Positions 2,054-37,885 are shown, counted from the stretch's first letter. The stretch is DNA of 64,000 nt from an uncultured Gammaproteobacteria bacterium (GCA_963748215.1 CAVVHS010000007.1:64001-128000); one strand, 5' to 3'. The notes: a model not told the origin generated them from the sequence alone. A program made the numbers and translations.

Positions 2054-2065
2054 GAGTGTTTACTC

Positions 2066-3105
2066 AATGGCCACGGAAGCACACGGAAAAATCCAATAGG
2101 CAGGATGCGCCATAGGGTGAGACGTGAGCCGGCGTAGGGTGCACTTTGTGCACCATTCCCGGTGCGTAGAACGCACCCTACAACGAATGGCCACGGAAGC
2201 ACACGGAAGAATCCTTAGGCAGGATGCGCCATTGGGTGAGACGTGAGCCGGACGTAGGGTGCACTTTGTGCACCATTCCCGGTGCGTAGAACGCACCCTA
2301 CAACGAATGGCCACGGAAGCACACGGAAAAATCCAATAGGCAGGATGCGCCATAGGGTGAGACGTGAGCGGACGTAGGGTGCACTTTGTGCACCATTCCC
2401 GGTGCCTAGAACGCACCCTACAACGAATGGCCACGGAAGCACACGGAAAAATCCAATAGGCAGGATGCGCCATAGGGTGAGACGTGAGCCGGCGTAGGGT
2501 GCACTTTGTGCACCATTCCCGGTGCGTAGAACGCACCCTACAACGAATGGCCACGGAAGCACACGGAAGAATCCTTTAGGCAGGATGCGCCATAGGGTGA
2601 GACGTGAGCGGACGTAGGGTGCACTTTGTGCACCATTCCCGGTGCATAGAACGCACCCTACAACGAATGGCCACGGAAGCACACGGAAAAATCCAATAGG
2701 CAGGATGCGCCATAGGGTGAGACGTGAGCCGGCGTAGGGTGCACTTTGTGCACCATTCCCGGTGCGTAGAACGCACCCTACAACGAATGGCCACGGAAGC
2801 ACACGGAAGAATCCTTTAGGCAGGATGCGCCATAGGGTGAGACGTGAGCGGACGTAGGGTGCACTTTGTGCACCATTCCCGGTGCATAGAACGCACCCTA
2901 CAACGAATGGCCACGGAAGCACACGGAAAAATCCAATAGGCAGGATGCGCCATAGGGTGAGACGTGAGCCGGCGTAGGGTGCACTTTGTGCACCATTCCC
3001 GGTGCGTAGAACGCACCCTACAATAAATGGCCACGGAATCCACGGAAGCACACGGAATTACACGGAAAAAACTATTGGGATAATTCCGTGTGCTTCCGTG
3101 GCCAT
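2066..3105. repeat. Tandem array of eight 120-bp units, each with an inverted REP doublet (BIME/REPIN-like), closed by an inverted copy of the unit start
   Basis: Units start at 2066, 2186 ... 2906; each holds GTAGGGTGCACTTTGTGCACC-attccc-GGTGCGTAGAACGCACCCTAC; the ATGGCCACGGAAGCACACGGA start is inverted at 3085-3105. Confidence 0.95.
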
Positions 3106-8505: not shown

Positions 8506-8615
8506 GCAGGAGCGCTTCGCACGGCCGTTCCCGCACATGGCCCGGGCCAGCCTCTCGACCCGGGCTATGTCCGTAAAAACAGTCTCACCTGTTCCCTGCA
8601 CATCGCGCGAGGTTT
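8506..8615. repeat. REP-like host element carrying a 55-nt mini-insert (8539-8593)
   Basis: Flanks match the reverse complement of 29247-29291; the insert is near-identical to 37429-37481. Confidence 0.75.
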
Positions 8616-23599: not shown

Positions 23600-23739
23600 A
23601 CGACTACAGGGATGCAGGAGGTGCGAGTCCATGGATAGACTCGGTAGAGTGAAGCAGTAGAAGGTGAGATCGCGCAGCGATCGAGCGACTGTCCTGGGCC
23701 ATGCCAGAGACGAGGGCAACGCATGGAGCAGTTGCCGAG
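23600..23739. repeat. Nested small-repeat composite: about 50-nt host with internal inserts
   Basis: Host ACGACTACAGGGATGCAGGAGGT/AGAG/CAACGCATGGAGCAGTTGCCGAG matches the reverse complement of the 37391-37493 host; inserts at 23623-23645 and about 23650-23716, the latter containing the mini-insert 23659-23700. Confidence 0.7.
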
Positions 23740-36686: not shown

Positions 36687-37319
<633 letters not shown>

Positions 37320-37379
37320 TCAACAACCACGGTGTTCCTGTGCCAATGAACGCCACCCCGGGATCCGCTGTATTCTACT

Positions 37380-37506
37380 GTCATTCCGGCCTCGGCTTTG
37401 GCTTCCTGCGCCGCTCTACCTCCTGCATGGCCCAGGCCGCCTCTCGACCCGGGCTATGCCCGTAATAATGGCTCACCTTCTCCATGCAGTCGTGCGCCGG
37501 AATGAC
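37380..37506. repeat. Three-level nested repeat: REP palindrome containing a 50-nt element containing a 53-nt mini-insert
   Basis: Outer GTCATTCCGGC/GCCGGAATGAC; middle 37391-37428 plus 37482-37493; inner 37429-37481 inserted at CAT^CC. Confidence 0.8.
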
Positions 37507-37516
37507 GGAAGATGAA

Positions 37517-37885
37517 TTATCCAGGCCTTCCCGGGAGCAGCTCAAGCACCTTCTCCGGCGGCCGGCCGATGACCGCCTTGCCGTCGCGGACCACGATGGG
37601 GCGCTCGATCAGTTTTGGGTATTTGACCATGGCGTCGATCAGCTGCGCGCGCGTCAGCGCCGGGTCATCAAGCCCGGCGTCTTTATACTCCTGTTCATGT
37701 TTACGCATGAGTTCGCGCGGCTCCAGGCCGAGCATGTCCAGCAGGGCGGCGAGCCTGCCCCGGGTCGGCGGCGTCTTGAGGTATTCGACGACCGCCGGCT
37801 GCACGCCGTGACGGTCCAGCAGTTCCAGTGTCGCACGCGACTTGCTGCAGCGCGGATTGTGGTAGAGGGTGACGCTGTCGCTCAT
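37517..37885 (-). CDS. arsC: Arsenate reductase (glutaredoxin) / YfgD family
   Basis: HNPRCSKSR, LIERPIV, IGRPPE. Confidence 0.88.
   Translation of the reverse strand: MSDSVTLYHNPRCSKSRATLELLDRHGVQPAVVEYLKTPPTRGRLAALLDMLGLEPRELMRKHEQEYKDAGLDDPALTRAQLIDAMVKYPKLIERPIVVRDGKAVIGRPPEKVLELLPGRPG

Follow-up and report, generated by a model that had tools for sequence, protein, structure and literature searches.

A 39-55-nt hairpin element with exact ends and a CAT^CC target, putatively mobile, in the repeat mosaics of uncultured Gammaproteobacteria

Three related insertions within nested repeats

We examined a stretch of 64,000 nucleotides from an uncultured Gammaproteobacteria bacterium (GCA_963748215.1, CAVVHS010000007.1:64001-128000), referred to below as the window, which is part of a 3.52-Mb genome assembled in nine contigs with a G+C content of about 60% (G000). 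A preliminary description of the window had proposed that it contains three related small inserts, which differ in length and hairpin and interrupt different repeats. Re-reading and folding of the sequence confirmed that all three are present with the positions, ends and hairpins that had been proposed, as are the CAT before each copy and the dinucleotides after them (Table 1). The element is called X here, and its three copies in the window are called A, B and C. The reading of these inserts as a non-autonomous mobile element, also put forward in the preliminary description, is supported by the analysis below; we infer mobility from paralogous sites and from the distribution of the element among genomes.

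Copy A represents three levels of nesting, as it splits a host repeat which is in turn enclosed by an 11-bp palindrome, and both the palindrome and an intact copy of the host site elsewhere in the window were found where they had been described. In the DNA fold around copy A, host sequence CTGCATGG pairs with CCATGCAG. Uninterrupted hosts of the copy A type are common in the genome, with 17-22 paralogous matches for closely similar flanks in BLAST searches. The host of copy B is a repeat of the GTAG type that resembles repetitive extragenic palindromic (REP) sequences (...ggccgttcccgcaCAT ^ CCctgcacatcgcgcg), and the joined flanks of this copy have no empty paralogue in the genome. A 23-nt pattern of the 5' arm, with up to three mismatches, matched twice in the window, where 0.00 matches were expected from 100 shuffles; the arm matches are thus beyond chance. 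Copy A escapes this pattern because its arm carries a 1-nt deletion.

Table 1. Positions of X copies, their hosts and related features. Coordinates are those of the window unless a locus is named; ^ marks the insertion point.
Feature	Position	Strand	Remarks
Copy A, X long type, 53 nt	37429-37481	+	1-nt deletion in 5' arm
Inner hairpin of copy A, CGGGC-TAT-GCCCG	37450-37462	+	DNA fold
CAT left of copy A insertion point	37426-37428	+	partner CC at 37482-37483
Host repeat split by copy A, ...gctctacctcctgCAT ^ CCatgcagtcgtgc	37391-37495	+	
Outer 11-bp palindrome, left arm GTCATTCCGGC	37380-37390	+	encloses host and copy A
Outer 11-bp palindrome, right arm GCCGGAATGAC	37496-37506	+	
Copy B, X long type, 55 nt	8539-8593	+	CAT before, CC after
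Copy C, X short type, 42 nt, hairpin GATCGC-TGC-GCGATC	23659-23700	-	AC after
CAT preceding copy C	23701-23703	-	
Empty target site of the copy A host type, cctcctgCAT^CCctgtagtcgt	23600-23622	-	intact site CCTCCTGCAT^CCCTGTAGTCGT
Head-to-tail X arrays	L191:290-380, 1750-1900; L192:300-400, 2060-2160		sister genus

Anatomy of the X family

In order to collect further copies we searched the genome with a regular expression composed of the 5' arm (up to four mismatches), a spacer of 5-70 nt and the 3' arm (up to two mismatches). This search returned 69 copies, which together with copy A gives at least 70 copies of X in G000. Two length classes account for nearly all of the 69: 43 copies are 42 nt long and 25 are 53-55 nt long, and a single copy of 93 nt contains the inner hairpin of the long type in three tandem copies. 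A further 145 copies from other genomes have similar lengths, namely 39-45 nt (136 copies), 54-55 nt (eight copies) and 74 nt (one copy).

All copies follow the same plan. An invariant 5' arm of 19 nt (GGCCCAGGCCAG, two variable pyrimidines (YY) and TCTC) is followed by a hairpin with a 6-bp stem and a 3-nt loop, and then by an invariant 3' arm of 10-11 nt (TCACCTTCT). The first pair of the stem is always G-C and the other five are variable. The foot of the hairpin is located 18-19 nt from the 5' end and 9-10 nt from the 3' end, and the two arms have no mutual complementarity. The long type has a second small hairpin, CGGGC-TAT-GCCCG, together with an A-rich stretch, where the short type has the top of its hairpin.

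In the 93-nt copy, located at G000:C7:56948-57040, 7 kb before the window, this inner hairpin is present three times in tandem as a 19-nt unit, and at G000:C7:185487-185517 the inner module is found inverted inside an X-like stem. Because it occurs both in tandem and inverted, the inner hairpin may perhaps be a separate module, which would add a fourth level of nesting.

Conservation of the hairpin was assessed in an ungapped alignment of 106 different 64-nt sequences, which covers X and its immediate flanks. Paired bases occupy 96.4% of the hairpin cells, and two-sided changes are seen in five of the six pairs. Covariation over the whole alignment has a score of 0.258, compared with 0.095 for shuffles (none of 500 reached the observed value) and 0.059-0.091 for slid partners; the aligned sequences are related to each other, and these figures are therefore not probabilities, but their direction is clear. 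Among the 636 hairpin cells 609 are Watson-Crick pairs, four are G-T and eight are A-C. The nearly exclusive use of Watson-Crick pairs and the lack of a match in Rfam argue that the hairpin is maintained as DNA rather than as RNA.

Ends, target and empty sites

Copies of X are inserted at a shared motif. In G000, CAT precedes 64 of the 69 copies and CC follows 63 of them. We pooled the flanks of 210 copies from G000 and from fetched loci, which yielded 165 different flank pairs. At the left side of the insertion point C is present at position -3 in 152 of these, A at -2 in 141 and T at -1 in 161, and at the right side C is present at +1 in 155 and likewise at +2 in 155; the exact arrangement CAT^CC is found in 119 flank pairs.

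The boundaries of the element can be read from paralogous sites. For 41 of the 69 copies BLAST searches of G000 found at least one site in which the 16-nt flanks on both sides are contiguous, with up to 22 such empty sites per flank type. These pairs of filled and empty sites fix the joints at CAT/GGCC and TTCT/CC (the slash marks the joint), with an ambiguity of a single T. In agreement with the preliminary description, neither terminal inverted repeats nor a target duplication is present.

Inspection of the flanks indicates that they form an inverted repeat, N4-CAT ^ CC-(A/C)TG-N'4, in which the outer bases vary from host to host and are complementary nonetheless. Among the 119 non-redundant flank pairs of the CAT..CC type, the bases at -4 to -7 are complementary to those at +6 to +9 in 82, 71, 60 and 33 cases, respectively, as opposed to 52.8, 33.3, 38.2 and 20.9 when flank pairings are shuffled; none of 1000 shuffles reached the observed counts. 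Seven of the nine pairs of this flank helix show changes on both sides in the 106-sequence alignment. Since the flanks form a short covarying inverted repeat, we conclude that X is located at the tip of host hairpins. The CATCC motif of the preliminary description thus holds as a shared insertion motif, and can be stated more sharply: the target is T^CC, located in the middle of a short inverted repeat whose arms covary. In other genomes some copies have non-palindromic, apparently unique flanks and are still preceded by (C/G)AT, and therefore the T at the left is the most constant part of the target.

Association of X with different hosts

The same subtype of X is found in many different hosts. 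In G000 the 26 copies of the long type are distributed over 21 different flank pairs, and among the short-type hairpins ACCGGTTCCCGG is present in 11 copies with 10 flank pairs and ACCGCTACGCGG in seven copies with six flank pairs. Hairpin ATCGCTGCGCGA is nearly confined to a single host. Three fully identical 55-nt copies are located in three different contexts. The hosts include the GTAG-type REP-like repeat, the repeat in the loop of the SRM-like outer palindrome, the end region of a repeat of approximately 600 nt, and a 67-nt miniature inverted-repeat transposable element (MITE). X is therefore not a fixed part of one longer repeat.

In several copies, including copy B, the flanks combine the left half of one target site with the right half of the adjacent target site in the same host. 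By inference these half-site joins are the products of deletion between two X copies in tandem sites, of which an intact form is present at C7:218792/218873. In G059 and G060, two genomes that belong to another genus, copies of X abut each other head to tail in the usual host site, as dimers and one trimer, with the exact joint ...CACCTTCT/GGCCCAGG... (TTCT/GGCC). The abutting copies belong to different subtypes, and because of this slippage does not explain the joints while a second insertion at the same site does. There are 14 such joints, most of which may come from one event carried by the host repeat.

Three of the repeats associated with X were noted in their own right. The 67-nt miniature repeat at L009:1435-1501 (G000:C6:837424-837490) is inserted in one of two copies of a Y2 transposase gene of the IS91 family, and the other copy, a 99.6% identical paralogue near C6:845000, lacks it; the same repeat also hosts an X copy at C6:898755. 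A non-coding repeat of approximately 600 nt, with ends ctatcccggccctggctgg... and ...ccgggatcccggtgagaaatgcgggctag, is present in several copies (L187, G000:C8:281300-281900; G000:C9:19850-20460; C9:2324), in several of which X is located 29 nt from the right end; this repeat has no match in Rfam. An abundant repeat composed of GCCACGGAATCCACGGAA and CGTGAGACGTGA motifs (G000:C6:201534-201623 and approximately 130 other BLAST hits) often forms tandem runs, and members of this family truncate some X copies.

Distribution of X among genomes

Of 24 other genomes of the genus, 20 contain the exact X pattern, and none of 16 genomes that represent other families of the class does. When mismatches were allowed, the 5' arm together with CAT was detected in 34 of 37 genomes of the genus, at 0-64 copies per genome, with the highest counts in G000 (64), G044 (51), G018 (44) and G045 (36). 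The count is zero in G010, G050 and G052, which are 93-100% complete; in view of the 64 copies in G000, we conclude that X is dispensable. Within the uncultured gammaproteobacterial order as a whole the 5' arm is present in 50 of 54 genomes and in all six genera. A reversed control pattern gave no match in any genome searched.

A scan of bacteria and archaea with one genome per species returned at least 116 matching stretches; among the matches listed, all are in metagenome-assembled genomes and nearly all are labelled as uncultured Gammaproteobacteria. One viral contig carries an X copy at its very end, and plasmid records gave no X match. Each species tends to be dominated by a hairpin variant of its own on shared arms, as would be seen for subfamilies that had been amplified from a small number of source copies.

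The family is apparently undescribed. No sequence in the window reached the gathering score of any model in Rfam 15, and three X-bearing loci gave nothing relevant at E values of up to 5 or up to 1. When the arm was used as a sequence word, the literature returned two unrelated 12-mer coincidences only, and a word search for similar elements returned nothing nearer than papers on REP sequences.

Search for an associated enzyme or function

The preliminary description had proposed HUH enzymes or IS110-family recombinases as candidates for moving X. The Y1 class of HUH enzymes fits the element by its geometry only, and IS110 and IS91 enzymes are disfavoured. G018, with 44 copies of X in 20 contigs at 96% completeness, has no hit to either IS110 (PF01548) or IS91 (PF04986), and the X-free G050 has four hits to each; moreover, the joints of X share one base and contain no core dinucleotide. 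PF04986 is missing from G044 as well. A long autonomous element with X ends was not found in G000, where lone arms are truncated or degenerate.

G000 encodes four RAYT-like (REP-associated tyrosine transposase) Y1 genes, and these are flanked by other hairpins of their own. A Y1 gene of G008 is the single case found near X, and the repeats that flank it are different ones, specific to that gene. When Y1 proteins were grouped by orthology, the RAYT-like group of 230-250 aa was seen in X-free genomes as well. Two of the G000 genes (L002 and L003, G000:C9:316317-316643 and C9:333650-333976) are identical RAYT-like Y1 genes of 245 aa, each flanked by inverted GGGGACAGACCACGTTTTC hairpins, and the Y1 genes at C9:71705 and C2:111905 have different flanking hairpins; another RAYT-like Y1 gene is located at C3:109441. 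These differences suggest that several separate pairs of the REP-RAYT type coexist in one genome.

Other candidates for an enzyme or a function were considered. A role of the reverse strand as a 5' leader was rejected, as the frame that follows its ATG has a median length of 25 codons (145 copies) and opens no recurring gene family. Genes located between pairs of X copies were inspected at six loci in five genomes and discarded as ordinary or not shared. The orientation of X relative to neighbouring genes shows no preference (-- 13, ++ 11, -+ 9 and +- 6, near background); a trend in the majority strand of genes around copies was weak and unstable with window size and with the crude open reading frame calls, and was not used. 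A 97-aa GIY-YIG gene at C7:386584-386796 (L184:1501-1713) is not visibly flanked by NTS/SRM-like hairpins, and no X copy is located near it.

Proposed mechanism and alternative explanations

In the reading that we favour, X is a non-coding mobile DNA element, 39-55 nt in length, which is non-autonomous and site-specific and is acted upon by an enzyme supplied in trans. We hold it quite probable that X moves, or until recently moved, as a unit of its own; for the full statement, including the mechanism described here, we see a little better than an even chance. In this mechanism an enzyme whose gene is located elsewhere would cut and join X in single-stranded form. A HUH-type single-strand cut-and-join reaction is suggested by the exact ends, the lack of target duplication and of inverted ends, the fixed sequence at the left and the constant spacing of the hairpin. 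The enzyme would take the hairpin as its reference point and cut 18-19 nt away on the 5' side and 9-10 nt away on the 3' side, in the manner of IS200/IS605, RAYT and rolling-circle HUH enzymes. A host hairpin, when extruded, would supply the single-stranded T^CC target in its tip loop; such a loop would expose T^CC on either replichore, which fits the missing strand bias reported below. Recombination between two X copies in one host would then delete the intervening DNA. Judged by its geometry alone the enzyme could be HUH-like, an assignment that we make tentatively and at clearly less than an even chance.

A number of observations weigh against this reading. Within G000, X is located solely inside other repeats and never in unique DNA, and therefore movement together with pieces of the host, or gene conversion of the host, could have made part of the pattern. 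Comparisons with 11 relatives and at a second region yielded no case in which X was gained or lost at an orthologous or allelic site. In those relatives (L170-L180) the spacer orthologous to positions 37307-37535 has a length of 40-334 nt and contains different repeats in each, and it differs even in the two nearest genomes, in which the flanking genes are 93-97% identical. Since the repeats of the spacer are all different, the whole composite is either young or has been replaced, and X is inseparable from its host there; the spacer looks like a hotspot of small-repeat exchange. In the second region, synteny with the two nearest genomes stops at a repeat cluster, and no orthologous pair of a filled and an empty site was obtained. 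Contigs from four public runs show exact skips of 42 nt at one X copy and of 55 nt at the next; however, the flanks have paralogous empty sites and the data are contigs rather than reads, and these skips are therefore no evidence of alleles or of excision. The head-to-tail joints are restricted to few genomes, with nine in G059 and five in G060 and none in the other 52 of the 54.

The search for an enzyme adds to these points. The Y1 (five), IS110 (two) and IS91-fragment (two) loci of G000 are all more than 6 kb away from any X copy, and none of 29 Y1 loci of relatives carries an X arm. No Y1 hit was obtained in G044 (51 copies, 96% completeness) or G019 (23 copies), the assemblies of which are fragmented or incomplete, and the X-free G050, G052 and G010 do carry RAYT-like Y1 genes. 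The strand of X is independent of GC skew (18 copies on the plus strand with G>C and 20 with C>G; 16 and 16 on the minus strand; in sum 34 copies in one orientation and 36 in the other; Fisher p = 1). The CTCTCG sequence has no complementarity to (R)CAT or TTCT that would indicate a guide, and no variant of the arms covaries with the flanks; non-canonical guide pairing is not judgeable from sequence. Finally, the model element IS608 has two subterminal hairpins, as opposed to the one of X, since the nested hairpins of the long type do not constitute a left and right pair.

Several of these observations would be expected if X were a module of a mosaic of the BIME (bacterial interspersed mosaic element) type, which has no transposition of its own and for which filled and empty sites arise by recombination, gene conversion and spread of the host repeats. 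The confinement of X to repeated hosts in G000 and the difference of the entire spacer among close relatives agree with this explanation. Several neighbouring modules start with CC and end with CAT, which would make CAT^CC a general joint of modules; hairpin ATCGCTGCGCGA is almost wholly tied to one host; the same unit of host plus X is found at several loci of single genomes; and the hosts are themselves mobile, as the 67-nt repeat is present in one IS91 gene copy and not in the other. However, identical X subtypes are found in 6-21 flank pairs which have only CAT and CC(N)TG in common, and this is too little homology for ordinary recombination. The arms of X are invariant over six genera while the flanks of the hosts vary and covary, some copies elsewhere follow (C/G)AT in non-palindromic and apparently unique flanks, and different subtypes are stacked at one site with exact TTCT/GGCC joints. 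We therefore consider the mosaic explanation quite unlikely. Selection for a function, either as a structured RNA motif or as a binding site of a conserved host protein, would account for the invariant unpaired arms (19 and 10-11 nt), for the two covarying helices and for the maintenance of X in 50 of 54 genomes of the order. It would not lead one to expect exact joints, empty sites and tandem stacking, and it is further contradicted by the lack of an Rfam match, of an orientation preference relative to genes and of a G-U bias between strands, by the short frames (median 25 codons) after the reverse-strand ATG and by the three near-complete genomes with no copy, in which X is evidently dispensable; in our view a functional sequence is very unlikely.

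The least probable of the explanations considered is movement by a conservative recombinase (IS110/IS1111 with a bridge RNA, tyrosine or serine) or by homing, in which a nuclease cuts the empty palindrome and repair copies X from a filled paralogue. It is known that IS1111/IS110 elements have no inverted ends and choose REP-like palindromes as their targets, the target of X is a near-palindrome that is disrupted by the insertion, and G000 has two IS110-type genes. Nevertheless, the junctions share a single T instead of a core of at least 2 nt, the number of X copies is out of step with IS110 and IS91 genes (44 copies in G018, which has neither, and none in G050, which has four of each), and G000 has no long element with X ends. 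Homing in particular would not keep the arms of X or the compensatory changes of its hairpin.

Within the favoured reading of X as a mobile element, a more specific form is that X represents the minimal substrate of an unrecognised single-strand transposition system, in which one hairpin serves as both ends, the 19/10 spacing is kept and insertion takes place into the tip loops of hairpins. We think this specific form rather unlikely, and its enzyme could be either a diverged Y1/RAYT-like protein or a member of a family not yet tied to transposition. If true, it would explain the nested REP-like hairpins and would provide a tractable model for the spread of REP-type repeats.

The X family offers unusually clean sequence evidence on how REP-type repeats spread, as its ends are exact and its target, T^CC at the tips of hairpins, is fixed. 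Numerous filled and empty sites in one genome, species-specific subtypes and head-to-tail stacking are combined in an element of approximately 42 nt that is conserved throughout an order. If an enzyme is matched to it, X would be among the smallest defined transposition substrates, and the pair might serve as a tool to place short sequences into single-stranded DNA at hairpins. If there is no dedicated enzyme, the pattern still demands an explanation. X further illustrates that the repeat mosaics between genes can be understood as insertions in layers, and this aids the annotation of metagenome-assembled genomes.

Comparison with known systems

IS200/IS605 elements are reported to follow the replication fork, whereas X shows no strand bias, and the described derivatives of these elements (PATEs) are far larger than the 39-55 nt of X. 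X also differs from this group in having neither a guide nor a replication-strand preference and in that no Y1 gene adjoins it or shares its ends. The likeness is in the geometry. As described in PMC3201880, the cut sites of IS608 are located 19 nt 5' of the foot of the left hairpin and 10 nt 3' of the foot of the right one, and insertion takes place 3' of the fixed tetranucleotide TTAC without duplication. The spacing of approximately 19 and 10 nt is similar to the 18-19 and 9-10 nt of X, which is a resemblance only, and both elements have no inverted ends, create no duplication, have ends defined by hairpins and insert 3' of a short fixed sequence that is left in place (PMC3201880).

X resembles REP sequences and REPINs (REP doublets) with their RAYT enzymes in consisting of short hairpins that are present in tens of copies and persist within a clade (PMC3479197, PMC3116915). 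In both cases the stem varies while adjoining bases are conserved, and the enzyme would act in trans. The TnpA-REP protein is described as monomeric, binding a single hairpin and cutting at either side of this hairpin (PMC3479197), and the same paper and PMC3116915 state that the way in which REPs and REPINs spread is unknown. Exact joints and a fixed target, as in X, are not established for REPs (PMC3479197, PMC3116915). In contrast to REPs, X has CTCTCG at its head instead of a GTAG-type head; apart from two convergent pairs, it forms singlets or direct tandems rather than inverted doublets; and no RAYT gene flanked by X was found among the Y1 loci of this genome and its relatives (0 of 33).

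Other systems are more distant. The joints of X lack the core dinucleotide of IS110/IS1111 elements, and DEDD transposases are not in step with X; IS91 has a GTTC/CTTG-type target as opposed to CAT^CC. A hairpin approximately 10 nt before the 3' end is a general trait of HUH substrates, and is common to IS91 and X. The arms of X are not complementary, and thus there is no pair of inverse core and core as in integron attC sites. IS1397/ISKpn1 and members of IS1111/IS110 also insert at a specific position in REP-like hairpins, and these are full-size elements that encode their enzymes; IS3-type palindrome inserters duplicate the target and the IS110 types repeat a core dinucleotide, whereas X does neither. 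Perhaps similar in kind are the small dispersed repeats (SDRs) of Nostocaceae, the subject of a paper by Elhai et al. in 2008. SDRs are shorter than 60 nt and show mobile-like insertions, including into other repeats. To our knowledge no enzyme is known for SDRs. They differ from X in phylum and sequence, and X has long asymmetric arms and a T^CC target at the tip of hairpins.

The outermost layer around copy A, namely the palindrome GTCATTCC...GGAATGAC, resembles the foot CGTCATTCCCGCG...GCGGGAATC of the NTS/SRM sequences that are targets of Ssn, as described in PMC11893778; this likeness concerns the host layer and not X itself. A close NTS-like copy is present at C6:898694-898720. Ssn is a GIY-YIG single-strand nuclease (PMC11893778) that is not known to have a joining activity. 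Although X lacks several of the features by which a member of the IS200/IS605 or of the RAYT-associated group would be recognised, it is, by analogy, closest in its working to a substrate of the IS200/IS605 or RAYT type.

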